Below are positions 1,945-19,787 of a stretch of DNA of 20,000 bases, piece by piece. The notes under the pieces were generated by a model. The model worked only from the letters and a program-made list of their open reading frames with translations, did no database searches and had not been told where the DNA came from. The translations under genes and the position numbers were made by a program. The stretch's first letter is position 1. Every line of letters begins with the position of its first letter. This DNA is from Halorussus marinus (GTDB lineage: Archaea > Halobacteriota > Halobacteria > Halobacteriales > Haladaptataceae): NCBI RefSeq assembly GCF_004765795.1, contig NZ_SBIV01000011.1, forward strand, positions 55,351-75,350. Reading direction: 5' to 3'.

Positions 1945-4900
1945 GCGACGACAGTGACGAGCACCCGTCGTGGTTCCCTGTCCCGGAAGAGGACGTCTCC
2001 CCGGAGCCCCAGCAGCGGACGATTATCAACTCCGACGCGTACCCGATGCGTGTGCTCGCCGGGGCAGGGACGGGGAAGACGTTCACGATGGTGCGGAAGA
2101 TCGAGCACCTCATCGACGAGGAGGACGTGTCGCCGGACCGGATTCTCGCGTTGACGTTCACGAACAACGCCGCGGACTCGATGCGTGAAAAACTCAACGC
2201 GAAACTCGGCGCGGCCGGGTACGACATCGACGCGTACACGTACCACTCCATCTGTAACGAGATCCTCACCGACTACGCGTACGAAGCTGGGATCGATCCG
2301 GATTTCGAGGTCGCCACGGACGCCGAGAAGTACGCCATCGTGCTGGACGTCCTGGACGACATCGAATACCGGTCTGTGAAACCAAACGTGTACGGGAGCG
2401 ACGGGTACGCGTCAGGGGCCGCGTCGAAGCTGCTCAACTTCATCGGGTCGATGAAGCGCAGCGGCATCACGCCCGACGACATCGACGCGTTCCTCGGCCC
2501 TGCTGACCGCGTCTACGAACTCGCCGACCTCTCGGAGCGCGTCGAAAACATCGCCAGCGATCATCTGGGCGGCCGGTCCGTGTCAAGCGTGCTGGATTCG
2601 CTTCCAGACGCGCGTGCTGACCTTGTCGCTGAGCGCGACGCACTCGGGACCCAGGGTATCGAAGCCAGCGTCCGCGACTTCCTCGACCGCATCATCGAGC
2701 TTTGCGACGAGTTGGAAGCAGCGTTCGAAGCCCACGAGGCGGGCGACCAAGCGTTGCCGGACAACGCGTACAAGCTCCCGAAGTATCTGCTTGGAGGGTA
2801 CGCGAACGGTGCGCCGAAGGGGATTCCGGACGATCTTGACCTCGAACTCACGGAGCATCTCGACTCGTTCCTCTCGGACTGTCTCACGGCCCGTGACCTG
2901 ACAGCGGGCTATGCGGCGTATGAGCGTGAACTCGACGAGCGGAACCTCATCGACTTCGACGGCCTCGTCGTGGAGACGGCCGCACTGATGGACTCGCCGG
3001 TCGGCGAGGAAATCGCTGACCGGTGGGACTACGTATTCTGTGACGAGTTCCAGGACACCGACCGGCTGCAGTTCGATCTCGTCACGTCGCTGGTCACCGA
3101 CGACAACCTGTTCGTCGTCGGTGACGACGATCAGGCGATCTACGAGTGGCGTGGCGCGAACGTCGCCAACATCACCGACGAACTCGACCGCGCGTTCGCC
3201 GCACTTGAAGATGAACCGTTAGAAGAGAACTTCCGGTCCCGACAGCCGATCCTCAACCTGGCGAACGAAGCAATTCAGAAGCTCGACCACCGCGAACGAC
3301 ACAAGACACTGAAACGCGTCAACGAACCCGCCTACGACGGCGACACCGTCGCAACCGTCGAACTGCCGGACGAGGACGATGCGGACGGCGCGACCCAGCT
3401 TCGCACCGTCGTCCAGAATCTGCTGAGCGGCGCAGCAGACAACCTCGAGGAGGCGTACAACCCGGGCGACATCGCGTTACTCGTTCGGAAGAACGACCAC
3501 GCGACGCCGGTCATCGAGGAGTTCGAGGATGCCGGCATCCCGTACCAAGTTGCTGGTGATCTGGCTACGGAATCAGTCGGCGTCGGCACCGTGACTGCCT
3601 ACCTGAAGGCGCTCGCGCGGCCCGAAGACGAGGTGAGTTGGAATCGCGTCCTCCTGATGCGGTACCGGCTCTGCGATGCGGACCTCCGGACGCTCAACGC
3701 GGGCGACGACCCGCTCGTGGACACACTGTGCGGGACGCCGCTCGACGAGTTCGAGGAACCCGACCGCGTCGCAGAAGCCCGCGAGCACGCCACGGAACTA
3801 CTCGAACTCCGCGACTCAGCGTCGCTCAGTCACCTGTACCGCGAACTTACGGACATCACGAACATCGAGTGGTACCTCAGCGAACAGGAACGCCGGGATC
3901 TCGCCCAACTGGAGGATGTCATCGAACAGTACGGGGATAGTGCCGTCCAACCACCGCTCACCCCGGAGTTCATCGACTCGCTCGAACACTACGACTCCCT
4001 GTTCGACGAGAGCGGCTCGACACCGACGAGTCAGCCGGACGTCGCCGACGACGCGGTCAACGTGATGACCATCCACAAGAGCAAGGGCCTGGACTTCCCG
4101 GTCGTCCTCATCCCGCAAGTCACGGCCGACGAGTGGGCACCGAGCTCACGTACCTACGACGCACTCGAAACGGGGCTCTCGGATGGCGCGGAGGCGGCGT
4201 TCGCCGAGGACTTCGTCGAGCGTGACGGGCGTGAAACCCGGCGCGTGTTCCACGTCGGAATCACGCGCGCCGAAGACGTCCTCGTCCTCCAGGGCGGCAT
4301 CGAGGACGACGACGATGCTGCGGACGTGCACCCGGTTTCAGAGGCCGTCGACGAGATTCTCCCAGCCCGAATCCCGTGGCAGCCAGCGCGCGGGCAGCTC
4401 CCGCTCTGGACCGACGTTCAGGAGTGTCTCCCGGATGATGCGGCAGATTGGACAGACACGCTGGCAAGCGAGACTGTCGGGCGCGTTGGAGGGACCGTCA
4501 CTCACGACGGCGACGAACTCGCAGTCGAAGCTGCGCGCGACCGCGTGCTAGACCTCGCAACAGCCACCCTCAACGGAGATCTCTCACCGGGGGCCGAGCG
4601 AGAGACACTCCAAGTGACGTCGCTGAACGGCCCGTCGACACCGTCACCATCGCTCTCGCACAGCTACACGTCGCTGGCAGCCTACGAGGAATGCCCGCGG
4701 AGCCACTACCTAGACTACGTGGTCAACGCATTCCCCGACTATCAGGATGCGACGAATGAAGCCCGGGATGGTGTTTCGCAACGTGAGATCGGGTTGCTGT
4801 TCCACGACACTGCAGAGCAAGCCGCGAACCAAGCTGTGGACCGGGGTGCGGAGTGGTACGAAATCTGTGAGCGCCTCGCCAGTCAACGCCGAGCCGAGGA

Positions 4901-5396
4901 CGCGCTCCCGGCGGCGAAACAGTGTATCGACCGGTACTTCGAATTAGACTTCCCCAGCTACGAGCTGATCGATGCGGAGCGAGAGTTCGAACTCGACATC
5001 GATGGGCACGAACTCGTCGGATACATCGACGCCGTCTACCGGACGCCAGACGATGAGTTGCTCGTCATCGACTACAAGGCCACCGAACGTCACCGCGACC
5101 TGGAGGACGACAAGCAACTCCCGATCTACCTGTTGGCATGTCGTGACCTGTACGATGAGTCCGTCGCACGTGCGGGGTACGCCTATGTCGGTGAGATAGG
5201 GCCGACGGTCGAGTCCCGAACATTCAGCGACGGTGACCTGGCGGCGGTCAGGGACGACGTGACGGCGTCGATGACCCGTATTGCCGAGTTCTCCTTCGGT
5301 CGGTACACTGCTGGTGACCACTGTCAGTGGTGTCAACACAACCAACTGGCCTGCGCGCCGGATTCGTTCACGGTCGGACCAGGATTCGAGGAGTGA
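1941..5396 (+). CDS. UvrD/REP SF1 helicase fused to a C-terminal PD-(D/E)XK nuclease (AdnB/AddA-like)
   Basis: Walker A AGAGTGKT, LTFTNNAA, DEFQDT, VVGDDDQAIYEWRG, ENFRS, MTIHKSKGLDFP, VGITRA. C-terminus has SYTSLAAYEECP, GYIDAVY, IDYK, QLPIY and CQWC...C. Confidence 0.95.
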   Translation: MSDDSDEHPSWFPVPEEDVSPEPQQRTIINSDAYPMRVLAGAGTGKTFTMVRKIEHLIDEEDVSPDRILALTFTNNAADSMREKLNAKLGAAGYDIDAYTYHSICNEILTDYAYEAGIDPDFEVATDAEKYAIVLDVLDDIEYRSVKPNVYGSDGYASGAASKLLNFIGSMKRSGITPDDIDAFLGPADRVYELADLSERVENIASDHLGGRSVSSVLDSLPDARADLVAERDALGTQGIEASVRDFLDRIIELCDELEAAFEAHEAGDQALPDNAYKLPKYLLGGYANGAPKGIPDDLDLELTEHLDSFLSDCLTARDLTAGYAAYERELDERNLIDFDGLVVETAALMDSPVGEEIADRWDYVFCDEFQDTDRLQFDLVTSLVTDDNLFVVGDDDQAIYEWRGANVANITDELDRAFAALEDEPLEENFRSRQPILNLANEAIQKLDHRERHKTLKRVNEPAYDGDTVATVELPDEDDADGATQLRTVVQNLLSGAADNLEEAYNPGDIALLVRKNDHATPVIEEFEDAGIPYQVAGDLATESVGVGTVTAYLKALARPEDEVSWNRVLLMRYRLCDADLRTLNAGDDPLVDTLCGTPLDEFEEPDRVAEAREHATELLELRDSASLSHLYRELTDITNIEWYLSEQERRDLAQLEDVIEQYGDSAVQPPLTPEFIDSLEHYDSLFDESGSTPTSQPDVADDAVNVMTIHKSKGLDFPVVLIPQVTADEWAPSSRTYDALETGLSDGAEAAFAEDFVERDGRETRRVFHVGITRAEDVLVLQGGIEDDDDAADVHPVSEAVDEILPARIPWQPARGQLPLWTDVQECLPDDAADWTDTLASETVGRVGGTVTHDGDELAVEAARDRVLDLATATLNGDLSPGAERETLQVTSLNGPSTPSPSLSHSYTSLAAYEECPRSHYLDYVVNAFPDYQDATNEARDGVSQREIGLLFHDTAEQAANQAVDRGAEWYEICERLASQRRAEDALPAAKQCIDRYFELDFPSYELIDAEREFELDIDGHELVGYIDAVYRTPDDELLVIDYKATERHRDLEDDKQLPIYLLACRDLYDESVARAGYAYVGEIGPTVESRTFSDGDLAAVRDDVTASMTRIAEFSFGRYTAGDHCQWCQHNQLACAPDSFTVGPGFEE

Positions 5397-5570
5397 CAGT
5401 CAAAACCGCGCGATTGGACTGACGGACGGTCTTCCGGTCTCTCCAGCCCTGATTCGCTTGCATATGTCGCCAGGCTTGGTTCGGGACGCTGTTCGCAGTC
5501 CGAGCAACTGTCGGGTGGACCTGGGTGACCGAGTGTTTAGGTCATTATCGCAGTAATCATTACTCAAAGT

Positions 5571-5700
5571 ATGATCGTCTACGACCGGGAGGTGGAACTC
5601 GATACCTTCACCGACGCAGTGGAGTTCCCAGGCTCGGACTTCATCTTCGTGTATGGGCGACGTTGAGTCGGGAAGACCTCGTCGAGAGCCTACGAACGAA
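5571..5700 (+). pseudogene. Remnant of an archaeal AAA-type ATPase (ATPase_2/DUF234-like) N-terminus
   Basis: ATG at 5571 reads MIVYDREVELDTFTDAVEFPGSDFIFVYGRR*VGKT. The typical YGRRRVGKT Walker A is interrupted by an in-frame TGA at 5664-5666 and similarity is lost shortly after. Confidence 0.75.
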
Positions 5701-6156
5701 GGCCGAGCACGTCCCCTGGGGGACCGGCTGACCGGGACGAACGGTTCGCCCGTTCTCGAAAAATAGATACGCCAACGGACTCGAAGACCACCTCGACGAC
5801 TCCTGGTCCCTGTTCAGCGTACCGGACATCGACGATCCCCTCACGGCGTATTGAGTACTCCGGCCTCCGGTCCAGAGAGCGTCTGGTTGAGTCGTTTTGA
5901 TGCGTGTCGCCTTCCAGATTCCGCACCTCCTCGGTGCTGTACTGGCATTCCAAAGGTTTCATCGAGGAAGGTAGGGATTCCCGGTGATGCGCGCGGTGTG
6001 TTGAGCGCTCCACCGTCTTTTCGCGGGTGAAGTAGTTCCCATATTGTCACTATCGGCGATATGGTCGTGCTGTCAGTCGGACAGCCATGCCGTGAATCCG
6101 GATTCGTGCTTCTAACGCCCTGTGGCGTTAGAAATATCGAGTTCTCAGGGCGAGGG

Positions 6157-6168
6157 TTTTTATTTAAC
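6157..6168 (+). promoter_or_regulatory. Probable TATA box for a leaderless transcript
   Basis: AT-rich TTTTTATTTAA about 25-30 nt upstream of ATG 6190. Confidence 0.5.
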
Positions 6169-6189
6169 CATGTAATTTCCAGGTCTACG

Positions 6190-6504
6190 ATGCAACGCGT
6201 CATCGACCGGAAACTGTACGACACGGACCGAGCCGAACAGATCGCCCAGTATGCTCCAAACGCGGATCGAGGTGACCTCTACTACCTCATCGAAACGCTA
6301 TACCGGACCGCAGGCGGGGAGTACTTCCTCCACTGTGAGGGCGGTGCGGCAACCAAATACGCCAAGTCGTGTAGCGGGGGCGGTACGACAGGCGGTGCGG
6401 AAATCAACTCTCTCGATGAGGAAGCGGCGCTGGACTGGTGCGAAGAACGCGGCATTGACGGCGAGATCGTCGTCGAGGAATTCGGACACCTGATCGAAAC
6501 GTAG
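6190..6504 (+). CDS. Small acidic hypothetical protein (104 aa)
   Basis: Likely start ATG 6190 (MQRVIDRKLYDTDRAEQIA...ETLYRTAGGEYFLHCEGG). Haloarchaeal composition and an upstream TATA. The ORF-track extension to 6061 looks non-coding. Confidence 0.75.
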   Translation: MQRVIDRKLYDTDRAEQIAQYAPNADRGDLYYLIETLYRTAGGEYFLHCEGGAATKYAKSCSGGGTTGGAEINSLDEEAALDWCEERGIDGEIVVEEFGHLIET

Positions 6505-6543
6505 CGTCGGTCAGCGGCTGCCTCGGAAACCACTCCTCTCTGA

Positions 6544-9033
6544 GTGGCTGGCGTACTGCGGATCGTGCCCGCAGCGAGGTATGTGAGAGACCCAAAAGAA
6601 ACTAACCGGCTTCACCGCCGGGGAACCAGTAGCGACGCTCGTCCGTATCCGCCAACCCCTGTCCCGTCCCCGATAACGAGCGGCGGGACAGCCCACTCAC
6701 CGGTCGCTCCAGTAGGGTTGGACGCACGGCGGCGTGAACAGGTAGACACCGTCATCCAGCGGTTGACGAGCGACGGACACGAGATTCCAGCACCGTTTTC
6801 GAAGCGAGAGCTGTACCAGACTGCTGCAGACGTTGGAATCGAGGTGTGGAAACCCGCAGTAAAGAACCGAGTCACCGAGCGTGTACTCGACCGACTCAGC
6901 TACGAGTGGGACTCAGCCTCTCGAACCTTCGCACCGGTCGTCACGGATGAACTCATCGAAGACATTCACCGAGCAGCAGACACCATCAGTCCAGCATTCG
7001 ACCCGAAACTGTCCGAGTCGCTCCACAAACAACTCCAGGAGTGGTGCGAACTGCACGGAATCGGGTCGATAGAAACAGGGGCGGTACAGAGAACTGTTGC
7101 GCGACACGCCATCCTGAGTGTTCTTCTAAAAGCGACGGTGTACGAGTGGTACCGGTGTCACGGCGTTGTTCCACCACTCACCAATTCGGTACAACAGGCG
7201 TTTCACAACGCACGGAAGCAGACACTAGACAGAACGTTCGATCAGTTCGTTCTTGACCACGTCGCGGAACTGGCTGATGAGGACCTCCTGGAATCTACGT
7301 TGGCTCACCGGGATCGATTGCTCTTCTCACCCCAGCCAACGGAAGAGATTGGGAAGCTCTACGCGGAGCTAACACCGAGCGAGTATCGACAGTCACTCGG
7401 GCAGTTTCGGACACCGCCGGAAATTGCAGTGACGATGAAGTCCTGGGCAAACCGCGATGTCGACCACCTTCTCGACCCTGGAATGGGAGCCGGCGTACTA
7501 TCCAGCACGTTTCACCCGCGCTGGAGTCTGAACACTGACCCCACGCACATCGACGGGATCGAACGTAGCCCCCTCGCACGGCTCATGGGCGCGACAGCAC
7601 TCACGTTGGGTGGACAGCTGAATACGCCACGAACACACGACTTCCTCACTCTTGATCCAGACGAACTGCAACACGACATCGGCGGGATCGTGTGCAACCC
7701 CCCATACACGAGCGGGGACGCGCTCCCGAAAGAGTACAAAGAACAGATCAACGCCGACATAGAGCAATCGACAGGAATCGACGTCAGTGCGCGATCACCA
7801 CTCTACACGTACTTCATGTACCACAGTCGGTCGTTCCTATCTTCGGGCGACCGTGCAGCGTTCCTCACGCCGGATAGTTTCCTCACGACAGCCTACGGCG
7901 ACTCACTCAAACAGTTCCTACTTGACGAGTTTTCCATCACTGCTCTCGTCCAGTTCGACCCCGAAGGCGAGTCGGTCTTCGAGGACGCCCAAGTCACCGC
8001 ACTCGCTTGCTTCTTAGAAGCAAGTTCTGGCGGTAACGAGGGGGTGACGCGCTTCATTCGCGTGGACGAGTCCATCGATTCGAGTACGCTTCGTAACGCA
8101 GTGCAGAATGGGGAGCAGGGTGAGACTGAGTGGGGATTCATCAATCACGTGCCGCAAGCGGATCTCGTACCCCGGCAAAACTGGGCAGCACTATTCGATC
8201 CCTGCGACGTAGATACAAGCGAGCTGACTGAGCTCGGCGAGTTCGTCACGATCCACCGCGGGAAGTCCACCGGCGATGTAACCTTTTTCTGCCTGACCCA
8301 GGACGAAGTCGACGAGTCCGGAATCTCTGAGAAACACTTGTCTCAACTCATTCGCCAACCAAAGCTCGTCCAGGGGTACGATTTCCGTGGAGAAGATTGG
8401 GAGAAATTACAGGCTGCTGGTGAGGAGGTGTGGCTACTAGACCCAGACAAACTACCAGAAGTCCAGAAGTCACGGGAGGACTTCGAGAAGCAAGTGCTAT
8501 TCAACGCTGACTCGCTCCCAAGGAACAGCAACGGCGAGGTGCCGAACGTCGTTTCGTATCTACAGGATAGCGTCTACCGGACCAATCCGCTCGGAGCGAA
8601 CGTAATCGAGAACCGCCCGTACTGGTATCGCCCCCGTCGACAAGCCTCACCTCGGTTCTTGGTGCAAGACGCCGGTCGAGACGGCTTCACGTTCATCCTC
8701 AACGAGACAACGGCGAGAAACATCAACAACTTCCGTGGATTCTACGACGTGTCCCTTGATGAAACTGAGCTGAAAGCGTTGCTCGCATACCTAAATAGCA
8801 ACATCGGACAGCAGGTGATCCAAGCACAGACACAACCGCAGCAAGGCGGCTACGAGAAACTCAGCATCAACGCGCTCAACGAACTCCCAGTTATCGATCC
8901 GACATCTCTCAAAGAACCTATCGTGGCGACTCTAGCCGACCTATTCGACGAGTTGTGCGAAACTGCCAGAGAAAATGGCGATTGTGAATCGGTGTTAGAG
9001 CGTCTCAACAGTCTGCTCCAGCAAGTGATCTGA
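6544..9033 (+). CDS. N6-adenine DNA methyltransferase (gamma class, Eco57I/TaqI-like) with C-terminal target-recognition region; start uncertain
   Basis: LGQFRTPPEIA (motif X), LLDPGMGAG (motif I), IVCNPPY (motif IV), LYTYF, YGDSLKQFLL, VFEDA. C-terminus ALLAYLNS...GGYEKL...LNELPV resembles a TRD. Confidence 0.88.
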   Translation: MAGVLRIVPAARYVRDPKETNRLHRRGTSSDARPYPPTPVPSPITSGGTAHSPVAPVGLDARRREQVDTVIQRLTSDGHEIPAPFSKRELYQTAADVGIEVWKPAVKNRVTERVLDRLSYEWDSASRTFAPVVTDELIEDIHRAADTISPAFDPKLSESLHKQLQEWCELHGIGSIETGAVQRTVARHAILSVLLKATVYEWYRCHGVVPPLTNSVQQAFHNARKQTLDRTFDQFVLDHVAELADEDLLESTLAHRDRLLFSPQPTEEIGKLYAELTPSEYRQSLGQFRTPPEIAVTMKSWANRDVDHLLDPGMGAGVLSSTFHPRWSLNTDPTHIDGIERSPLARLMGATALTLGGQLNTPRTHDFLTLDPDELQHDIGGIVCNPPYTSGDALPKEYKEQINADIEQSTGIDVSARSPLYTYFMYHSRSFLSSGDRAAFLTPDSFLTTAYGDSLKQFLLDEFSITALVQFDPEGESVFEDAQVTALACFLEASSGGNEGVTRFIRVDESIDSSTLRNAVQNGEQGETEWGFINHVPQADLVPRQNWAALFDPCDVDTSELTELGEFVTIHRGKSTGDVTFFCLTQDEVDESGISEKHLSQLIRQPKLVQGYDFRGEDWEKLQAAGEEVWLLDPDKLPEVQKSREDFEKQVLFNADSLPRNSNGEVPNVVSYLQDSVYRTNPLGANVIENRPYWYRPRRQASPRFLVQDAGRDGFTFILNETTARNINNFRGFYDVSLDETELKALLAYLNSNIGQQVIQAQTQPQQGGYEKLSINALNELPVIDPTSLKEPIVATLADLFDELCETARENGDCESVLERLNSLLQQVI

Positions 9034-9073
9034 TTGCCTAGTCTGTTTTTCAGCCGAAGAATCGCTCTTTGAG

Positions 9074-10024
9074 CTACGTGACTCCGTACTGTGACTTCAA
9101 CGACTCATACTCGGTAGGATTCGGAAGCACTGTGTCGCCACCACTCCGCTTCTCGACTCCGTCCTTGAGAAACGCATAGAGGTCCGAGACTGTGGATTCC
9201 AAACCGTACCATGTTGCGGTATTGCGTAGCTCTTCCTCGTCGATTTGTACGTGCTCGATGAGGAGGAGCGCGTAGCTCACTCGCCTCGACCCAGTGTCAT
9301 TCACGAGACTGTGACAGACAACTTGGGCAGGCGTGAGGGGCTCATCCGGTGCGTACCAAAACGCCGGTTCACCTGCCAGGAAGAACTGCAGGTCGAATGC
9401 GGCGAACCGCGCAAGCCCAGTCATCTCCCACTCGTCAGCGGCTTCGAGAGCCGCGGTGTCGTCTTTGGTGTGGACGTGGACAAGTGCCCGCTCGGGATCG
9501 AACCACTCGACTGTTGCACTTGGCGCGAGACGCCGGGCACGGGTGCGGTGCTCGTGCAGAATAACGGCTTCTGCGAAGTCGTGTAACGGTTGTAGGCCGG
9601 GGACGAACGCATATTCCGGCCCGGATGGGGAGAGCATCGCGCGATGTTTCAACGGGTCCAACGCGTGGTGGACCGCCTGTCGCGTGATGTCAAGTCGATC
9701 TGCGATTGTCGTTGCGCGTCGAGGTTCATCCAGAAACCAGCAAATGCGGATCGTCGCCGGCGATAGTAAATCTGGCCAGTCGACGTGCCCCAGTTTAGAG
9801 ACCAGGCCTCGGTACGCTTCGATCACGGGGTGGCCAGTAACGCGCAGAAGCCGCTGATTGTGGTGGCCCCTGGACTCGCCAATGAGCCCTTCGGTGCGTA
9901 ACTCGTCGGCCGTCCGGTAGATCTGCGAAGTGCTGAGCCCAGTTTCGTCTGCGAGCTCGTGCACGGTCGCTTCACACCCATCGTGAAGGGCGTCGATGAG
10001 TTCGAGTCCCGCGTTTGTAAGCAC
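9074..10024 (-). CDS. Double winged-HTH (MarR/ArsR-like) DNA-binding protein
   Basis: Two HTH segments (TVHELADETGLSTSQIYRTADELRTEGLI; ATTIADRLDITRQAVHHALDPL). Probable GTG start at 10024 (VLTNAGLELIDAL). ORF track extends to 10093. Confidence 0.8.
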   Translation of the reverse strand: MLTNAGLELIDALHDGCEATVHELADETGLSTSQIYRTADELRTEGLIGESRGHHNQRLLRVTGHPVIEAYRGLVSKLGHVDWPDLLSPATIRICWFLDEPRRATTIADRLDITRQAVHHALDPLKHRAMLSPSGPEYAFVPGLQPLHDFAEAVILHEHRTRARRLAPSATVEWFDPERALVHVHTKDDTAALEAADEWEMTGLARFAAFDLQFFLAGEPAFWYAPDEPLTPAQVVCHSLVNDTGSRRVSYALLLIEHVQIDEEELRNTATWYGLESTVSDLYAFLKDGVEKRSGGDTVLPNPTEYESLKSQYGVT

Positions 10025-10189
10025 TGCTGTAAAATAGAATAGTGAATCAGTAATAAGTGTTATCGGAAATTGATTTACGGTAGCCTGTTCCAATCAGTCA
10101 CTGGTCGAACAGGCGGTGATGGTTTTCGAGCCACTCGATCTCGTGGTACGTCACGTCATCCTGGATGTCGTATTGTGAACTACCCTACC

Positions 10190-11434
10190 CTACTCGCTCA
10201 CCGCTGACGCGGCTCGCTCCGTGAGGGTCGGGCTTCCTGCTTCTATGACGCGCTTTGCAGATACCGAATCGGTATCCACAGGAAGCGCAGTCTCCACAGG
10301 CGTTCGTTCGGAGTGTCCCACTCCTACTTTTTCGAGACCGCGAGAAAGGATATTCCACGCCGCGTTCGCGTCCCTGTCCGTCTCAAACCCGCAGGCAGGA
10401 CAGGAGTGTTCCCGAACCCACAGCGGTTTCTCCGTCGAGACGCCGCACGACGCGCACTCCTTGGTCGTCCCTCTCGGGTTGACCGCCACGAAGTGCGTTC
10501 CCTCTCGCTTGCACTTGTATTCGAGCAACGAGAGAAACGTCCGCCACGCGGCAGATGCCGTGTTGCGGCTGTTCGACGGCGACTCCAGCATCCCCTTCAC
10601 GTCCAGGTCTTCGACCGCCACCAGGTCGTACTCCCGAGCGTAGTAGTTCGAGAGTTTGTGCAAGAAGTCGCGGCGCTTTCGCTTGAGGGTGGCGTGGCGT
10701 TCAGCCACGACCTGCCGTTGTTTCTCCCAATTCGCGGAGCCGTGTTCCTTCCGCGAGAGGTCGCGCTGTTCGCTTTCGAGCCGTTCGCGCTCGTCAGAGA
10801 GGTCTGGCGACCCGACCGCCGTGCCATCGGTGTCATGAGCGTACTTGAGAATCCCCACGTCGATGCCGACGCACTTCTCGGGGGTTTCGGGCTTCGCGGG
10901 TGGTTCGCGGTCCATTTCGACGCCGAACGTGGCGAACCACTCGCCCGTCGGTTCCTTCTTGAGCGTGACCTGCTTGAGTGTCGCGTCGTCGGGGATGGCG
11001 CGGTGGAGCCGAATCGGTATATCTCCGAGTTTCGAGAGTGATAGGACAGTCTGACCGCCCTTCTTGTCGAGCTTGAAGCCAGACTGGTTGTACGTGAAAC
11101 TGCGGAACTCCCGTGGTGGCTTCCATTTGAGTTGGCCGACGCCGTAGCCGTTCTCCTTGAGCTTCGAGAGGCTGTTGAGGTTGTCGAACAGGCGTTCCAC
11201 GACGGTTTGGAGAACTTTCGAGTACACGTCGGAGAGGTCGTCCCACCACTGTTTGAGGTCGGGAAGTTCCGACCGCAGGGTGGTCATGGACGGCAATTCG
11301 CCGTGGTTTTCTCGGTACTCGTTGAGGCGGTAGAGCGTGTGGTTGTAGAGTTGCCTACAAATGTCTCGGTGGCGGTCCAACGCCTCGCGGTGGGCGTCGG
11401 ACGGCTTGAGACGGTACTTGTAGGCGTAGTACAT
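10190..11434 (-). CDS. tnpB: RNA-guided endonuclease TnpB (IS200/IS605 OrfB)
   Basis: N-terminal YKYRLKPS...CRQLYN. RuvC residues intact (VGIDVG, VAVEDL, DRDANAAWNI). Zn ribbon CASC...CPAC. Confidence 0.96.
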   Translation of the reverse strand: MYYAYKYRLKPSDAHREALDRHRDICRQLYNHTLYRLNEYRENHGELPSMTTLRSELPDLKQWWDDLSDVYSKVLQTVVERLFDNLNSLSKLKENGYGVGQLKWKPPREFRSFTYNQSGFKLDKKGGQTVLSLSKLGDIPIRLHRAIPDDATLKQVTLKKEPTGEWFATFGVEMDREPPAKPETPEKCVGIDVGILKYAHDTDGTAVGSPDLSDERERLESEQRDLSRKEHGSANWEKQRQVVAERHATLKRKRRDFLHKLSNYYAREYDLVAVEDLDVKGMLESPSNSRNTASAAWRTFLSLLEYKCKREGTHFVAVNPRGTTKECASCGVSTEKPLWVREHSCPACGFETDRDANAAWNILSRGLEKVGVGHSERTPVETALPVDTDSVSAKRVIEAGSPTLTERAASAVSE

Positions 11435-12314: not shown

Positions 12315-12390
12315 AGCCCCGGAGTCTCCGTTGGCGAGGGACGCCGGACTTTGAATCCGGAGGTCGCCGGTTCGATTCCGGCCGGGGCGA
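12315..12390 (+). tRNA. tRNA-Gln(TTG)
   Basis: Anticodon arm CCGGA-CTTTGAA-TCCGG, T arm GCCGG-TTCGATT-CCGGC, acceptor GCCCCG/CGGGGC. A1:G72 mismatch and G at position 8. Confidence 0.85.
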
Positions 12391-12396
12391 CTGCAT

Positions 12397-12470
12397 GCCG
12401 ACGTGGTGTAATCCGGCGAGCATACGGTCCTGTCACGGCCGTGATCCGGGTTCAAATCCCGGCGTCGGCG
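12397..12470 (+). tRNA. tRNA-Asp(GTC)
   Basis: GCCGACG/CGTCGGC acceptor, CGGTC-CTGTCAC-GGCCG, CCGGG-TTCAAAT-CCCGG, G73. Confidence 0.93.
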
Positions 12471-12475
12471 TGGAT

Positions 12476-12625
12476 GCGTGGCGTGGCCACGTGGGGATAC
12501 CCATCGAGGTAGGCAGCCCGTTGGTGCGATCAGCTGGATCGTTCCCACGATGCTGGGCCCAGCAGGGTCTGCAACCTACATGAGCCGGTGTGGTATTCCC
12601 GGGAGCACCCGAAGTACGCCCCCGC
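12476..12625 (+). ncRNA. Unassigned multi-branch structured RNA within the tRNA array
   Basis: GGCGT/ACGCC, GGGGATACC/GGTATTCCC, CATCG/CGGTG, GTAGG/CCTAC, CAGCCC/GGG(T)CTG enclosing hairpins CGATC/GATCG and TGCTG/CAGCA. Confidence 0.5.
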
Positions 12626-12722
12626 GATGAGACGCACAATCACGACTACCCGTTCGTGATTGCGCAGTCGGAAACAGTCGTACAGATAGATAATCAACTG
12701 CCGAACGCTCGGCAGTACCCGT

Positions 12723-12795
12723 GAGCCGATAGTCCAGCGGACGACGATCTGTGCCTTGGGCGCACAGGACCGAGGTTCGAATCCTCGTCGGCTCA
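12723..12795 (+). tRNA. tRNA-Pro(TGG)
   Basis: GAGCCGA/TCGGCTC, TGTGC-CTTGGGC-GCACA, CGAGG-TTCGAAT-CCTCG. Confidence 0.9.
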
Positions 12796-12799
12796 GTGT

Positions 12800-12882
12800 G
12801 CCGTGTCTGGGGAATGGTGACCCCACTGGCCTGCTACGCCAGCCTCGGCGACGGGTTCCCGGTTCGACTCCGGGACACGGCG
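12800..12882 (+). tRNA. tRNA-Ser(GCT)
   Basis: GCCGTGT/ACACGGC, CTGGC-CTGCTAC-GCCAG, long variable arm, CCCGG-TTCGACT-CCGGG, G73. C at position 8. Confidence 0.88.
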
Positions 12883-12884
12883 TG

Positions 12885-13025
12885 ATGCCAAAGAATATCT
12901 GCCCTGACTGCAACGAGGAAGCGTTCCGCCACGTCCCGCTCGGCGAAACAACCTCAATCGACACGATTGGAAGTGTGAGAATCTGCGTCACCGACGAAGG
13001 CACGTACTTCCACGGAACGAGGTGA
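12885..13025 (+). CDS. 46-aa small protein with a CPxC motif (putative Zn-binding microprotein)
   Basis: ATG 2 nt after tRNA-Ser. MPKNICPDCNEEAFRHVPLGETTSIDTIGSVRICVTDEGTYFHGTR. Acidic, haloarchaeal-type codon use, lies in a gap with little RNA structure. Confidence 0.65.
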   Translation: MPKNICPDCNEEAFRHVPLGETTSIDTIGSVRICVTDEGTYFHGTR

Positions 13026-13026
13026 C

Positions 13027-13140
13027 AGCCTTTCGCCCCTACCGTGACTGGGTGCTGGTGAACTCATTCACCCCGAAAGCGAGGGTCAGAAGCTGAGCAA
13101 TATGCATCTTCCGACATTCCGTGAGTAACGCGAAGGGGCT
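13027..13140 (+). ncRNA. Unassigned structured RNA candidate
   Basis: Ends pair (AGCCTTTCGC/GCGAAGGGGCT). Inner GGGTGC/GCATCT encloses small hairpins GGTGAA/TTCACC, CCC/GGG and TCAG/CTGA. Confidence 0.4.
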
Positions 13141-13166
13141 CGTCGGAGCAAGCTCCGACGGCGTGT

Positions 13167-13248
13167 GGTGAGACAAGCAGATTGGTGACTGCGCTCGGTT
13201 TGAAACCGAGAGCTGCGAGGCTTCGGAGTTCGAATCTCCGTCTCACTG
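13167..13248 (+). tRNA. tRNA-Ser(TGA)
   Basis: GGTGAGA/TCTCACT, CTCGG-TTTGAAA-CCGAG, long variable arm, CGGAG-TTCGAAT-CTCCG. Confidence 0.88.
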
Positions 13249-13250
13249 TT

Positions 13251-13336
13251 GGCGGGATTTCCCTAGCCCGGCCAAGGGACCGCGTTGGAAGCGCGGCGTC
13301 CGCGAGGGCACGAGTGTTCAAATCACTCTCCCGCCG
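13251..13336 (+). tRNA. tRNA-Ser(GGA)
   Basis: GGCGGGA/TCCCGCC, CCGCG-TTGGAAG-CGCGG, long variable arm, GAGTG-TTCAAAT-CACTC. Confidence 0.88.
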
Positions 13337-13383
13337 CTGCGTGCCGAAGTGATTCGCAGAGTCGTTAGCGATTCTCGAATTGC

Positions 13384-13465
13384 GCCGCCATGCCAGAGTG
13401 GTCAAACGGACACGGTCGAGAACCGTGTGGTTAGTCCTTCCCAGGTTCGAATCCCGGTGGCGGCA
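13384..13465 (+). tRNA. tRNA-Leu(GAG), atypical (C33, T-stem mismatch)
   Basis: GCCGCCA/TGGCGGC, CACGG-TCGAGAA-CCGTG, variable arm, CCAGG-TTCGAAT-CCCGG with an A:C mismatch. Confidence 0.8.
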
Positions 13466-13505
13466 TACCGGTCACGGTACCGGTAGACGATTCCCTGTAT
13501 TCTCT

Positions 13506-13588
13506 GTCGCCGTACCCAAGTGGTCAACGGGAAGCGGCTCAGAACCGCTGGCGTAGGTCCTCCCGAGGTTCGAATCCTCGCGGCGACA
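13506..13588 (+). tRNA. tRNA-Leu(CAG)
   Basis: GTCGCCG/CGGCGAC, AGCGG-CTCAGAA-CCGCT, variable arm, CGAGG-TTCGAAT-CCTCG, A73. Confidence 0.92.
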
Positions 13589-13591
13589 CTT

Positions 13592-13663
13592 CTCTCCGTG
13601 GTCAAGTGGTCACGACACCTCCCTGTAGAGGAGGAGATGCACGTTCGAGTCGTGCCGGAGAGA
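13592..13663 (+). tRNA. tRNA-Tyr(GTA)
   Basis: CTCTCCG/CGGAGAG with archaeal-type C1-G72 and A73, CCTCC-CTGTAGA-GGAGG, short variable loop, GCACG-TTCGAGT-CGTGC. Confidence 0.92.
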
Positions 13664-13667
13664 CTGC

Positions 13668-13794
13668 GGGGCGGTGGAAGAGCCTGGCATTCACACACTC
13701 TCGCCGAGTTTTCACCGGAGACCCGGTGCGACGGAGAGAGTTCCTTCATCTCACTTGTAACGAGAACACGCAGGTTCGAATCCTGCCCGTCCCA
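13668..13794 (+). ncRNA. tRNA-like RNA (TGT/Thr anticodon) carrying a 55-nt insertion with the Y-RNA motif
   Basis: GGGGCGG/CCGTCCC acceptor, TCTCA-CTTGTAA-CGAGA, GCAGG-TTCGAAT-CCTGC. Deleting 13694-13748 leaves a 72-nt cloverleaf. The insert folds as CTCTCGCCG-AGTTTTC-ACCGG-AGAC-CCGGT-GCGA-CGGAGAGAG-TTCCTTCA. Confidence 0.8.
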
Positions 13795-13795
13795 C

Positions 13796-13824
13796 TGACC
13801 GATGACCCTTGACGGGCGAGGTCA
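13796..13824 (+). other. Kink-turn-like hairpin in a tRNA spacer
   Basis: TGACC-GAT-GA-CCCT...GGGC-GA-GGTCA: a canonical stem, a 3-nt bulge and tandem G.A/A.G pairs. Confidence 0.55.
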
Positions 13825-13828
13825 CTCT

Positions 13829-13901
13829 GCTCCAGTGGAGTAGCGGCCAAACTCACGGCCCTCTCACGGCCGAGCCCTCGGTTCGAATCCGGGCTGGAGC
13901 A
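13829..13901 (+). tRNA. tRNA-Glu(CTC)
   Basis: GCTCCAG/CTGGAGC, GAGT/ACTC D stem, CGGCC-CTCTCAC-GGCCG, CTCGG-TTCGAAT-CCGGG. Confidence 0.93.
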
Positions 13902-13904
13902 TGC

Positions 13905-13977
13905 GGGCCCGGAGCCTATGAGGACAGGCAAGCGGCTTTTAACCGCAGGATAGCGGGTTCGAATCCCGTCGGGCCCT
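13905..13977 (+). tRNA. tRNA-Lys(TTT)
   Basis: GGGCCCG/CGGGCCC, GCCT/AGGC, GCGG-CTTTTAA-CCGC, GCGGG-TTCGAAT-CCCGT. G at position 8. Confidence 0.88.
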
Positions 13978-13983
13978 ATCGGT

Positions 13984-14057
13984 GCCTGGGAGACCCCCCT
14001 GGTGGGGGTGCTGGGCTGTTACCCCGGTCGCGGGAGGTTCAAGTCCTTCCCCAGGCG
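13984..14057 (+). tRNA. tRNA-Asn(GTT)
   Basis: GCCTGGG/CCCAGGC, ACCC/GGGT, CTGGG-CTGTTAC-CCCGG, GGAGG-TTCAAGT-CCTTC, G73. Atypical A8 and D loop. Confidence 0.82.
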
Positions 14058-14086
14058 CTCGGAACCACTAGTTCCATAGCAGTGAG

Positions 14087-14162
14087 GCTCCCGGAGTCTC
14101 CGTTGGCGAGGGACGCCAGCCTTTCAAGCTGGAGATCGGGGGTTCGATTCCCCTCGGGAGCA
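14087..14162 (+). tRNA. tRNA-Glu(TTC)
   Basis: GCTCCCG/CGGGAGC, CCAGC-CTTTCAA-GCTGG, GGGGG-TTCGATT-CCCCT. G at position 8. Confidence 0.88.
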
Positions 14163-14165
14163 CTC

Positions 14166-14249
14166 GGGAACTGATAGTGGACAGTGACGCTCTGTGTCGT
14201 ACCAGCAAGGTAGCGACGCAGACCGGTGACGCGTCCTCTGTCGGTTCCC
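14166..14249 (+). ncRNA. Unassigned long hairpin RNA
   Basis: GGGAACTGATAG/CTGTCGGTTCCC, GGAC/GTCC, internal loop with GTGACGC on both strands, TCTGTGTCG/CGACGCAGA, TACC/GGTA. Confidence 0.5.
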
Positions 14250-14253
14250 ATAG

Positions 14254-14344
14254 CGTGCGGTCGACGAGACGGTGCGTTCCTTCAGCCCGCAAGGCCCACA
14301 CCGGGAGTCATAGCCCGTCGCGCCATCAGTTTCCCGACCGCACG
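14254..14344 (+). ncRNA. Candidate Y RNA 1 (short, no tRNA-like domain)
   Basis: Terminal stem CGTGCGGTCG/CGACCGCACG, internal loop ACGA/AGTTTCC, second stem GACGGTGCG/CGCGCCATC, then TTCCTTCA. Near the Ro60 gene. Confidence 0.75.
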
Positions 14345-14492
14345 TGGCGACCGTCGAGTCGGGGCGTTGCTTCGCCAGGAACTCGCAGGTTCAAATCCTG
14401 TCGGTGGCCTCGTCCATCGAGAACATCCCGGACAAAGAGAGCACGTGGGTGCTCTCGACACCGGATCCGCCTCGACAGTTTCCCGGTCGCCA
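14345..14492 (+). ncRNA. Candidate Y RNA 2 (T arm and closed acceptor-like stem)
   Basis: TGGCGACCG/CGGTCGCCA, loop TCGA/AGTTTCC, GTCGGGGCG/CGCCTCGAC, TTGCTTCG. T arm GCAGG-TTCAAAT-CCTGT followed by CGGTGG/CCATCG. Extra hairpin GAGAGCAC/GTGCTCTC. Confidence 0.78.
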
Positions 14493-14502
14493 TCACTCAT
14501 CC

Positions 14503-14639
14503 CGTGGCCGTCGAGTTGGAGCCATCCTTCGCCTCTGGAGCCGGAAGTCCGGGTTCGAATCCCGGCGGTGGAATCCGTTCTTCCACCGTAGTGTAACCAG
14601 GTAGCACGCTGTTCCGGCTCCAGCAGTTTTCCGGCCACG
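14503..14639 (+). ncRNA. Candidate Y RNA 3, YrlA-like with circularly permuted tRNA domain
   Basis: CGTGGCCG/CGGCCACG, loop TCGA/AGTTTTC, GTTGGAGCC/GGCTCCAGC, ATCCTTCG. Then T arm CCGGG-TTCGAAT-CCCGG, loop-closed acceptor CGGTGGAA-TCCGTTC-TTCCACCG, TA, and D arm GTGT-AACCAGGTA-GCAC. Confidence 0.85.
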
Positions 14640-14644
14640 TCCTT

Positions 14645-14719
14645 GTCTCCGTAGCTCAGTCCGGACAGAGCACCGGCCTTCGAAGCCGGGTGTCGCACGT
14701 TCGAATCGTGCCGGGGACG
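14645..14719 (+). tRNA. tRNA-Arg(TCG)
   Basis: GTCTCCG/CGGGGAC, GCTC/GAGC, CCGGC-CTTCGAA-GCCGG, GCACG-TTCGAAT-CGTGC. Confidence 0.94.
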
Positions 14720-14787
14720 TTCGCTGCTCGCACCACGTGTGAGCAGCACTAGTATCGGAGTCGCCTGTTGCGGCTCCGAGTGATAGC

Positions 14788-17324: not shown

Positions 17325-17924
17325 ATGCTCCTCGAACCGCCCGACAGAACACGCGGCTTCAAACGCGAACGACTCCTCCGCGTCCTTCTCAACCACCCGA
17401 CTGGCGAGCTCAGTAAACGCGCCCTCTCACGGGAAGCAGGCACGACCGACGCGTGGGCTGTCAAGCTAACCAACCAACTCGAAAAGCAGGGACTCATCGA
17501 AGGCACAACCGTCAAAGACCCGCGTGGTCTCTACGAGTACTGGCAAGACACACGCATCGCGCCATCCAAAGTAGCGGTCGCACTTCAGTCACCGGTGAGT
17601 GTGATACAAGACGCTGGCCTCACCCACGCCTTCACGACGTACCAAGCAGAAAACGCCCATCAGGGATTTCTCTTCACCTCCAACACAGCTGTCTACGTAG
17701 ACCCAGACGAGACACAGGACTGGGTCTCGATCATTGAGGAACACGGACTCATCGGCGGCGGGAACACAGAGTTCAGAGTAGCCGACGAACACGTGTTCTA
17801 TAACGCCGAAACCGTTAACGAACTCCAGACAGTCTCCATCCCCCAGTTAATCGTGGATCTTCTGGATGAAGGAGGTCCGTGCGTCGAAGCCGCTGAACGA
17901 CTCATCGAGGCACATCATGAGTGA
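17325..17924 (+). CDS. HTH protein, AbiEi-like antitoxin/regulator
   Basis: N-terminal wHTH (LSKRALSREAGTTDAWAVKLTNQLEKQGLI) and C-terminal VSIPQLIVDLLDEGGPCVEAAERL. Overlaps the downstream NTase gene. Confidence 0.75.
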   Translation: MLLEPPDRTRGFKRERLLRVLLNHPTGELSKRALSREAGTTDAWAVKLTNQLEKQGLIEGTTVKDPRGLYEYWQDTRIAPSKVAVALQSPVSVIQDAGLTHAFTTYQAENAHQGFLFTSNTAVYVDPDETQDWVSIIEEHGLIGGGNTEFRVADEHVFYNAETVNELQTVSIPQLIVDLLDEGGPCVEAAERLIEAHHE

Positions 17925-18744
17925 GGCAGACCGTAGCCAGTACGCCGACGAAGTCACGACGTTTTCCGAATCCGAATTACAGCACCTACTCGAAGTGGCA
18001 GCTCCGCCAGTCTGCCTCCTTGGCGGGTGGGCAGTCCATATTCACGTCACCGATGCCTTCCGTGAGGAGCATGGCCGCTCATACATCGGTTCCAGAGATA
18101 TTGACCTTGGCGTCCACGTCGACTCGGAGTGGGATGCGAATACGCTTCAATCAAAACCAGTTTCCACAACCCTCACGAATATCGAATCCGAGCTTGCGTA
18201 TAACCGAGGGCGATTCGGTTTCTACCAGTATTTCCATCGCACGACGAAGGAAGCACTTAGCGACGAAGACGCAGCAGACTACCCCCAGCACGAGATCTTC
18301 CGTCTCGATATCGATGTCCTTCCAAGCACCACAGAACTCGATTCATTCACTGAGGCGTTTGGATTTCGACCCCCAGCTGACCCCCTCCTCGCTCCAGTAT
18401 TCACTGACAATCAATCAGAGAAACTCAATGAGTTCGTCCCATGGGACGCACCAGCAGACGCCCACTTAGTACCACGACCGATCCTTGCAGCGATGAAGGT
18501 ACGCGCATTCCCAGAACGAGATAAGAGCCACAAGCGATTGAAAGACATAGCTGACTTACACGCCCTCGTATGGTACGGGAGCGACTTCAATCAACTCCGA
18601 AGTGATATCGAGAACCATTTGACACAAGATGATATCACCCGATTCAAAAACGGAACTTCAACCGAACTATTTGCGAGCGCTGCTACGCTCATTGGAGTTG
18701 ATAGAGACGTACTCCAGAACTCGATCCAACAGCTCTTCATTTAG
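17917..18744 (+). CDS. Pol-beta-superfamily nucleotidyltransferase (AbiEii/DUF1814-like toxin)
   Basis: Likely start ATG 17917 (MSEADRSQ). LLGGWAVH...GSRDIDLG, DIDVL, AAMKVRAF...KRLKDIADL motifs. Confidence 0.8.
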   Translation: MSEADRSQYADEVTTFSESELQHLLEVAAPPVCLLGGWAVHIHVTDAFREEHGRSYIGSRDIDLGVHVDSEWDANTLQSKPVSTTLTNIESELAYNRGRFGFYQYFHRTTKEALSDEDAADYPQHEIFRLDIDVLPSTTELDSFTEAFGFRPPADPLLAPVFTDNQSEKLNEFVPWDAPADAHLVPRPILAAMKVRAFPERDKSHKRLKDIADLHALVWYGSDFNQLRSDIENHLTQDDITRFKNGTSTELFASAATLIGVDRDVLQNSIQQLFI

Positions 18745-18941
18745 CCCATCTCACGAAATGGGCTAGCCTGAACGAGAGGCCGATGGCCACACAGGAACGT
18801 CCGACGAATCCACGGGAAGCTCCGAGGCGATTCACCCTGAAGGGCACCCTCCCATGTACCCACGTATGTACGTGAGTACGTACATAGGCCCGTACCCGAG
18901 GCGGAGGTAGGTTTTAGGAAGGGAGTTACTTTGTCGACGGC

Positions 18942-19307
18942 ATGTTTCGACGGTCGTTCCTCAGCGCTCTCTCAGCAGTACCGGTACTCCCACGAATCCT
19001 CGACCGGCCCCATTCAGATCAGCGGCCAGCCGTTCCATCCGAAGGCAGTCTCATGTTCTGGTTCCATTTCTACGGGGCGATCCGACGCGACCGACCCATG
19101 AGTACTGAACGAGCGCGAAAACAGGTAGTGAAGAAGTTGAATCTCCAGAACCTCACCGACGACGAAGCTGTCCGGCTCTTGGAGCTGGCGAACGATGGCG
19201 TGTACGACACCGAGGATATGCCCGGACGATGGAGCAGTGTCTTCGAGGAGGTGGAGGGGAACTTCTCTCGTGAGATCTCATTCCAGACGAGTGACCGCGA
19301 GATATGA
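18942..19307 (+). CDS. Hypothetical protein (121 aa) with possible twin-arginine-like N-terminus
   Basis: MFRRSFLSALSAVPV start and an acidic C-terminal half. No recognisable domain. Confidence 0.5.
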   Translation: MFRRSFLSALSAVPVLPRILDRPHSDQRPAVPSEGSLMFWFHFYGAIRRDRPMSTERARKQVVKKLNLQNLTDDEAVRLLELANDGVYDTEDMPGRWSSVFEEVEGNFSREISFQTSDREI

Positions 19308-19443
19308 CCAAAGCCCCTACCGGAGTCCCGAGGAGTACCTCCTATCGGCCACGGGAGGTTTCTATCAGTATCTATAGATGTGACTGTGGAAAAGCGGGTA
19401 GGCCCAAGACAAGGTCGTCTTGGGCTTTAGGGTATCGTGTGAG

Positions 19444-19519
19444 AGCCAAGGGCCGGATTTGAACCGGCGGTAGGCGGCTCTGCAGGCCGCTGCGTTCGGC
19501 CGGACTCTGCCACCTTGGC
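19444..19519 (-). tRNA. tRNA-Cys(GCA)
   Basis: Reverse complement GCCAAGG...GCGGC-CTGCAGA-GCCGC...GCCGG-TTCAAAT-CCGGC-CCTTGGC-T. Lies downstream of 5S, as is usual in haloarchaeal rrn operons. Confidence 0.97.
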
Positions 19520-19613
19520 GCGTCTGGCGCTAATCGCTCGCTGCGCTTAAGTATAGCGGTCCTCGATCGGATCGACCGCAAACGAGACGGCTGCTGTGGC
19601 TCGCGATCGATAT

Positions 19614-19652
19614 GAAAAAAGCCCGCACGGACACGATGTCCGTGCGGGCTTA
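19614..19652 (-). terminator. Hairpin plus T-run downstream of 5S rRNA
   Basis: AAGCCCGCACGGACA-CGA-TGTCCGTGCGGGCTT perfect inverted repeat, followed on the minus strand by TTTTTT. Confidence 0.6.
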
Positions 19653-19666
19653 ACACCTATGAATGG

Positions 19667-19787
19667 CAGGCGGCGAATCGAATTTCCCAGAGGGTCGCCC
19701 ACTCCAGTACTCCTCGATACGCAGGCGGGCTTAACTTCCGTGTTCGGGATGGGTACGGGTGTCGCCCCGCCGCTCTGGCCGCCTTAA
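19667..19787 (-). rRNA. rrf: 5S rRNA
   Basis: Reverse complement TTAAGGCGGCCAGAGCGGCGGGG...CCCGTACCCATCCCGAACACGGAAGTTAAG...GGGAAATTCGATTCGCCGCCT. Confidence 0.97.

Follow-up and report, generated by a model that had tools for sequence, protein, structure and literature searches.

A tRNA-ended Y-like RNA beside a haloarchaeal Ro60 gene

A 127-nt element in a tRNA gene array of Halorussus marinus carries a Y-RNA-like module within a tRNA body, and its sequence makes it likely that this is a Y RNA that does not decode and has genuine tRNA ends, i.e. an un-permuted YrlA and a predicted partner of Ro60. The window (the whole stretch of DNA that was analysed, 20,000 nt) is haloarchaeal, and the element lies in it between the genes for tRNA-Tyr and tRNA-Glu. 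An earlier note on this DNA had described a single tRNA–Y RNA chimera; the composition was correct, but the form is not a one-off, as it belongs to a widespread class across archaea and viruses.

All parts named in the earlier note were found base for base (Table 1), including the TTCCTTCA motif, which is indeed identical to that of the linear Y-like RNA at 14264. The 55 nt said to be extra in a normal tRNA are also present, although their removal leaves the D arm one base short. This insert corresponds to the Ro-binding stem of the three linear neighbours, capped by a tetraloop. CCA is not encoded after the discriminator.

Table 1. Coordinates of the element, its parts and its neighbours in the window
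Feature	Position	Strand	Remarks
tRNA-ended Y-like RNA gene	13668..13794	+	86 bits, model trained partly on this copy
Acceptor stem, 5' strand GGGGCGG	13668..13674	+	G2:C71; G4.U69 here, A4:U69 in 43/46
U8-G9 and D arm	13675..13692	+	A14, G15, GG kept; 3-bp local stem GAA/TTC
TTCA at both insert bounds	13690-13693 and 13745-13748
C/A linker	13693..13697	+	Homologues differ in length by CA units
Stem B' and pyrimidine-rich AGTTTTC	13698..13713	+	Y-module 3' arm, placed first
Stem B'	13698-13706	+
AGTTTTC	13707-13713	+
Terminal Ro stem ACCGG/CCGGT with AGAC cap	13714..13727	+	100% of cells paired; tetraloop in 12 variants in 46
GCGA, stem B and TTCCTTCA motif	13728..13748	+	GCGA is the predicted Ro60 contact strand
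GCGA	13728-13731
Stem B	13732-13740
TTCCTTCA	13741-13748
Anticodon-like hairpin TCTCA-CTTGTAA-CGAGA	13749..13765	+	YrlA 'V' slot; stem covaries, loop drifts
Variable loop (C48), T arm, acceptor 3' strand, discriminator A	13766..13794	+
T arm	13770-13786
Acceptor 3' strand CCGTCCC and A	13787-13794
tRNA gene array holding the element	12315..14720	+	14 ARAGORN tRNAs
Linear Y-like RNA 1	14254..14344	+
Linear Y-like RNA 2, with T arm	14345..14492	+
Linear YrlA-type RNA 3	14504..14638	+	T arm, closed acceptor, D arm; Rfam YrlA 31 bits, cut-off 69
Ro60/Rsr (TROVE + vWA), 509 aa	14788..16317	+	Pfam PF05731, PF25045

The insert folded more stably than expected (z = -3.6, with 0 of 200 shuffles equally stable), and so did the whole RNA (z = -2.8). 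The motif in which the 3' arm of the Y module precedes its 5' arm occurs three times in the window (in the element and at two junctions of tandem Y-like RNAs) versus 0 occurrences in 200 shuffles. ARAGORN did not call the element, and Rfam matched only its 3' half, as a tRNA with 31 bits. A structure detector built on the acceptor, stem B, the CTTC motif and the T arm found two places in the 3.76-Mb genome, the element and a second copy; in its relaxed form it gave four false matches in the host genome. The bases of a tRNA elbow are present as well: T8, A14, G15 and C48 are invariant and GG is kept in at least 90% of 46 homologous copies.

The D stem can form in two registers, as GAAG may form 3 bp with the local TTC or 4 bp with the CTTC that follows the insert, and the two are within about 1 kcal/mol of each other in most homologues. 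A local D stem of at least three pairs is found in 23 of 26 members of the wider family, and the distal 4-bp stem only in 5 window-type rows of the 26. These sequences support the local register for the family, while in the window's lineage both registers are equally stable. A fold with the module inside the D loop and GAAG/CTTC as the D stem was dropped for the family because of the 23/26 local stems; for the window's lineage it is possible.

The Ro60 gene and its genomic setting

The element is located 994 nt upstream of the TROVE ORF on the same strand, well within the 4 kb from a Ro60 gene by which YrlA RNAs are recognised. The window Ro60 matched phiRo60 (9kop/9l5y) over its full length (E 5e-32). 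It has the TROVE and vWA domains, its metal site is retained in the alignment, and the Y-RNA surface is basic except at the equivalent of R137, which aligns to a proline: the phiRo60 residues K141, K142 and R178, which contact RNA (PMC12135203), align to R146, R147 and K184, all of them basic. The host also encodes EndA and RtcB. No RNase PH-family protein was found in the host genome (99.97% complete), so that this host has neither PNPase nor an exosome; a PNPase or exosome tether, including the PNPase (RYPER) complex, is therefore ruled out here, and Ro60 particles must use another effector.

Morgado and Vicente described TROVE genes in 20 of 29 haloarchaeal tRNA gene clusters, many tRNAs of which are pseudogenes (PMC6333295), and the array of the window is such a cluster. 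The term Y RNA does not occur in that paper. A second tRNA array of the same genome (L173, G000:C7:29840-35885) has its own Ro60, 90% identical to the first, and holds the second copy of the element. The element was further found on eight haloarchaeal plasmids.

The array is likely an island beside an rRNA operon. To its left (1039-11434) are UvrD/PD-(D/E)XK genes, an Eco57I-type methylase and an IS605 TnpB, and to its right (17325-19786) an AbiEii-like gene pair, tRNA-Cys and 5S rRNA. Structured array spacers at 12474-12720 and 13025-13165 received no tRNA or Rfam call. A long imperfect hairpin without a Y motif precedes Y-like RNA 1 (14163-14250) and is retained in some homologous arrays. 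Linear Y-like RNAs similar to those at 14254-14638, up to five per array, lie beside Ro60 in many haloarchaea.

Relation to YrlA

YrlA (Rfam RF02553; PMC4201824; 10.1101/312249) and the element share one circular arrangement of parts, from the CGA strand through a stem, the YUAY-like motif and the V/anticodon hairpin to the T arm, the acceptor, the D arm and the pyrimidine strand. Both are encoded near Ro60 on the same strand. As described in these sources, YrlA ends in the Ro stem, carries the T arm before the D arm and has a closed acceptor, whereas the element ends in an open acceptor, keeps the arms in tRNA order and has its Ro stem internal and capped. The linear haloarchaeal Y-like RNAs run from the Ro 5' strand, stem, CTTC motif, hairpin and T arm through a closed acceptor, D arm, linker and stem to the Ro 3' strand. 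Judged by this order of parts, the element is the ring of the linear Y RNAs with its opening moved to the acceptor and its Ro stem closed. The proposal that it is the inverse of YrlA with a capped Ro stem was supported by the shared circular order, the tie to Ro60 genes and the conserved insert motifs.

At E up to 1, the Rfam YrlA model (RF02553) did not match the element. Three YrlA features are missing from it: a Ro stem made from the 5' and 3' ends, the T-before-D order with a closed acceptor, and the sequence GNCGAAN0-1G. Its contact strand reads TGCGAC, so that of the Y-RNA motif that had been claimed for it the CGA core stands and the published consensus does not. The linear neighbours, with GTCGAG in 47 of 66, also lack the second A of CGAA. 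phiRo60 binds a stem-bulge-stem with CGAA, and a change of this second A weakened binding about 3-fold (PMC12135203). On these comparisons, the element would work like a Y RNA but lies outside YrlA both in topology and in the strict motif.

In the linear YrlAs of two phages, a Xanthomonas phage and CcrColossus, the slot named V by Chen et al. 2014 (PMC4201824) holds a 5-bp, 7-nt anticodon arm, which means that both forms join the Ro module between the D arm and the anticodon arm. Moreover, junctions of tandem linear Y genes show the part order of the tRNA-ended form, suggesting a duplication route between the two forms in either direction. In the published model, YrlA descends from a tRNA dimer (10.1101/312249, Discussion). 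A tRNA that already carries the Ro hairpin and is interconvertible with YrlA by tandem duplication would be a simpler and testable route, and it touches two standing questions about Y RNAs, their origin from tRNA and the role of the tRNA-like module.

Some known RNAs resemble the element in part. M. smegmatis YrlA that has been cut by RNase P and has received CCA is likewise Ro-bound with an open 7-bp acceptor and a CCA end, but it consists of two pieces from a cut permuted precursor, whereas the element is one chain and is encoded so. In D. radiodurans, RNA b (and RNA a) upstream of rsr is expressed and weakly Rsr-bound and has a T arm but no terminal Ro stem (PMC4201824). According to a machine reading of Fig. 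S3 of that paper, the short terminal stem of RNA b starts with GGGAC, its centre is a long hairpin and its T arm lies close to the 3' end. This layout resembles an RNA beside a Deinococcus-like Rsr on a metagenome contig (L114:1500-1653); the module belongs to the Yrn1 type (L114 has GGGCCGA), and the available text of PMC4201824 does not class RNA b as a Y RNA or as tRNA-ended. The L114 RNAs may be counterparts of RNAs a and b. The closest precedents would be the processed M. smegmatis YrlA and, probably, RNA b, which may have gone unrecognised in this respect. A predicted tRNA-like RNA occasionally found beside Rsr, b7a-tRNA, is said to resemble authentic tRNA, with no Ro module mentioned in the available text (cited in 10.1101/312249).

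The YrlA descriptions cover only bacteria and phages in the available parts of PMC4201824 and 10.1101/312249, and a term search of five supplementary files of PMC4201824 returned no archaeal entry. Among the full texts that could be searched, no paper on an archaeal or a tRNA-ended Y RNA came up.

The tRNA-ended form in archaea and viruses

The shared plan of the class begins with a 7-bp acceptor, a local D arm, an A-rich linker, a stem, a pyrimidine strand and a short capped hairpin, and continues with a CGA-like strand, a stem, T(A/C)CTTC, a hairpin and a T arm. This architecture lies upstream of TROVE in 3/3 haloarchaea whose Ro60 is 50-53% identical and is present in 7 of 8 TROVE-bearing non-halophile genomes of the phylum, several of which have the tRNA-ended RNA immediately upstream of Ro60. 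In one of the seven (L146, possibly a contig from a virus or one that was misbinned), the Rsr is of the bacterial type. There and in L183, also beside a bacterial-type Rsr, the module carries the canonical GGCGAAG. Two methanogen-type members (L165, L161) have an intact tRNA-Thr(UGU) body with the module inserted at about position 26/27; their relatives have GTC, GTG or GTT anticodons.

Among viral contigs, uncultured phages included, seven tRNA-ended RNAs were found in 5 of 67 Ro60 loci. The halovirus HGTV-1 has one member between rtcB and the TROVE gene, and crAss001 has two unannotated members just downstream of the TROVE gene gp96 (L244:4693-4836 and 4948-5086). On the metagenome contig L114, three tRNA-ended RNAs (1376-1833, minus strand) lie upstream of the Rsr gene; their module is GGGCCGA/CTTGCCC. 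CCA is encoded directly after the discriminator in 5 of the 26 members examined, phage members among them. The HGTV-1 member (HGTV1_136) is annotated in GenBank as 'tRNA Asp (gtc) + Intron'; the class thus corrects annotation, as tRNA finders miss such genes or label them intron tRNAs.

We counted pairs in 20 distant members in an unfitted MAFFT alignment. The bases have changed on both sides in 20 of 24 pairs, in the acceptor, D, B and T stems, and covariation was 0.65 compared with 0.19 in shuffled and at most 0.20 in slid alignments. Window-type rows are gapped in the D helix of this alignment, and pairs were counted on the named structure, as RNAalifold missed stem B and misplaced the D strand.

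Full-length model matches occurred in only 4 of 151 genomes of the phylum, all of them TROVE-positive and three of them training sequences of the model; the remaining matches were tRNAs of 72-104 nt with 59 bits or less. A scan of viral contigs with a capped-hairpin motif yielded nothing new (two known loci and six chance matches without TROVE), and a second hairpin pattern gave 0 matches there. blastn with L187 against phages found no match, and with L114 against plasmids a single 33-nt match. Many R2 matches in viral loci were junctions of tandem linear YrlAs with poor acceptor pairing and were not counted.

Conservation in Halobacteria and alternative functions

Of 401 Halobacteria genomes, 46 have Ro60, and the 22 with the whole element all belong to these; a genome with no Ro60 match (G391) gave a 50-nt partial match to the 3' part only. 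Halorubrum alkaliphilum DSM 23564 and Haloarcula amylolytica JCM 13557 are examples of strains with the element. Because only 24 of 46 GTDB Ro60 loci have the whole element, it must be dispensable, and damaged copies exist (L013, L070). In 46 distinct copies 96.5% of cells were paired and nine pairs had changed on both sides (0/500 shuffles). CGA and CTTC are invariant in 46/46 copies, as is GAAG, while the cap and linker vary; these homologues are 91% identical and not independent, so that the invariance is partly due to kinship. The alignment suggested earlier as a check thus found the insert motifs conserved. A T-arm pattern identified 46 loci, 16 of them not window-type. As this pattern builds in the invariance of the T arm and acceptor, both were rechecked in 29 copies found without it, where they were nearly invariant.

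The anticodon behaves differently from the motifs. The TGT anticodon arm noted in the window copy is there, but TGT is kept in only 37 of 46 homologues; the others have TTT, TAT, TCT, GTT or a shortened loop (L056), and U33 is lost in 9/46, so that the conserved UGU and U33 of a tRNA-Thr(UGU) are not seen. The adjacent tRNA-Glu has a Glu anticodon in 39/39. The Thr identity pair is C2:G71, whereas 45 of 46 copies have G2:C71, and the tRNA-Thr genes of the host begin with GCC. As the anticodon is not kept, decoding is unlikely, and from these sequences the element probably does not serve as a decoding tRNA-Thr.

Could the element be a tRNA that stays unspliced, is charged and delivers its amino acid, together with bound Ro60, to the ribosome or some other acceptor? 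Such a role would fit the near-invariant acceptor and T arm, A73 in 43 of 46 copies, the CCA encoded in phage members and the covarying anticodon stem. We consider it unlikely, however: the anticodon varies or its loop is shortened, the acceptor sequence varies freely across the wider family, and the body, which is closest by a small margin to the host tRNA-Pro, has neither the Pro anticodon nor C2:G71.

A functional tRNA-like RNA whose insert binds a protein other than Ro60, or which acts as a Ro-independent decoy for anticodon nucleases, would explain why the motif deviates from the published Ro consensus and why an exposed anticodon-like loop is retained; tRNAs of such arrays have been proposed as nuclease sponges in Anabaena (PMC8421152). 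The tight co-occurrence with Ro60 across lineages and the canonical GGCGAAG beside bacterial-type Rsr in L146 and L183 make this quite improbable. There is even less to be expected from the view that the element is a functionless by-product of tandem Y-RNA duplication, in which a Y-gene junction was trapped between tRNA halves and now drifts. The tandem linear junctions do give the same 3'arm-5'arm order, the element is patchy in its presence and many array tRNAs are pseudogenes (PMC6333295). Drift would nevertheless hardly account for acceptor, D, B and T stems whose pairs have changed in a compensatory way in archaea and phages alike, for a motif that is fixed while the cap and linker vary, or for a position immediately upstream of Ro60 in several non-halophile genomes.

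The insert is probably not an intron

No bulge-helix-bulge (BHB) was found in the window copy for any cut that leaves 68-80 nt, whereas the same test recovered the introns of the host tRNA-Trp and tRNA-Met as positive controls. In homologues, 25 of 44 had none and the other 19 had matches at scattered positions, and the HGTV-1 copy had a weak 4/2/1 BHB-like match. No fetched locus contained an insert-free copy of the tRNA body. Only one of four RNA runs (X4, and not X3, X5 or X8) had contigs spanning the element; two of these cross the insert and no joint skips it, which is weak evidence as contigs drop rare forms and DNA carry-over is possible. With no BHB, no insert-free copy and no spliced join in RNA contigs, the insert is probably not an intron, as the earlier note had judged. 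BHB-intron tRNAs of archaea also have an insert in the tRNA body, but the element differs from them in having no BHB, in its insert not being at 37/38, and in conserving the insert sequence and not the anticodon. An ordinary tRNA-Thr(UGU) whose non-canonical intron is removed by the splicing endonuclease could draw on the TTCA repeat at both insert ends, the majority loop CTTGTAA, EndA and RtcB in the host, the intact tRNA-Thr scaffold of L165 and L161 and the GenBank intron label of the HGTV-1 member, but it is extremely unlikely given these results, the drifting anticodon and the presence of the same insert in phages of bacteria.

A possible role for tRNA ends on a Y RNA

As a non-decoding Y RNA, the element would likely be transcribed with the tRNA array, cut from the transcript by RNase P and tRNase Z and given a CCA end, as suggested by the general course of tRNA processing and by the CCA encoded in relatives. 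It would then likely fold into an L shape with the insert left unspliced, and the adjacent Ro60 would bind the CGA internal loop; the motif shared with the linear neighbours and the CGAA stem-bulge-stem of phiRo60 point to this site.

More tentatively, and with less than an even chance by some way, the CCA-ended body might be a stable, nuclease-resistant tether or gate that brings Ro60 to tRNA-handling enzymes. These might act in end repair, RtcB ligation or surveillance once the mobile array has been switched on as a defence against tRNA damage or stress. A cyanobacterial array is co-regulated with rtcB (PMC8421152), and this, together with rtcB beside the HGTV-1 copy, is in line with such a role.

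It is almost an even possibility, on the sequences compared, that the members form an overlooked class of Y RNA, made up of CCA-ended tRNAs with a capped Ro60-binding hairpin at 26/27, some of which may be aminoacylated, and that they are the missing intermediate from tRNA to YrlA. So read, and with the same slightly less than even confidence, the class would span archaea, archaeal viruses, bacteriophages including crAss001 and a Deinococcus-like bacterium. Tandem duplication of a tRNA-ended gene would then yield a permuted YrlA directly. If some members are aminoacylated, Ro60 would carry a charged mimic of tRNA in tRNA-repair conflicts. The free acceptor with CCA makes both charging and enzyme recruitment directly testable.

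Further RNAs in related loci

Other RNAs were seen in the loci compared. Some arrays, mostly those without the tRNA-ended form, contain upstream of tRNA-Tyr a linear Y-like RNA that lacks a T loop and has three or four internal hairpins (L055:2670-2830, L068:2414-2580, L056:3160-3345, L028, L029, L030). A further long RNA, whose ends are also tRNA-like (GGGGCGG ... T arm, CCGTCCCC), occurs at L081:1393-1525 and in L102, L107 and L112, with no TROVE gene in the fetched flanks. In CcrColossus, a linear YrlA junction (L243:2074-2240), part of which is annotated as tRNA-Gln, could fold an acceptor with 6 of 7 pairs followed by CCA. Finally, two minimal tRNA-ended forms of 93-95 nt (L157:5727-5821 and L156:3445-3537) have lost the D arm and keep the acceptor, the Ro module, a small hairpin and the T arm.
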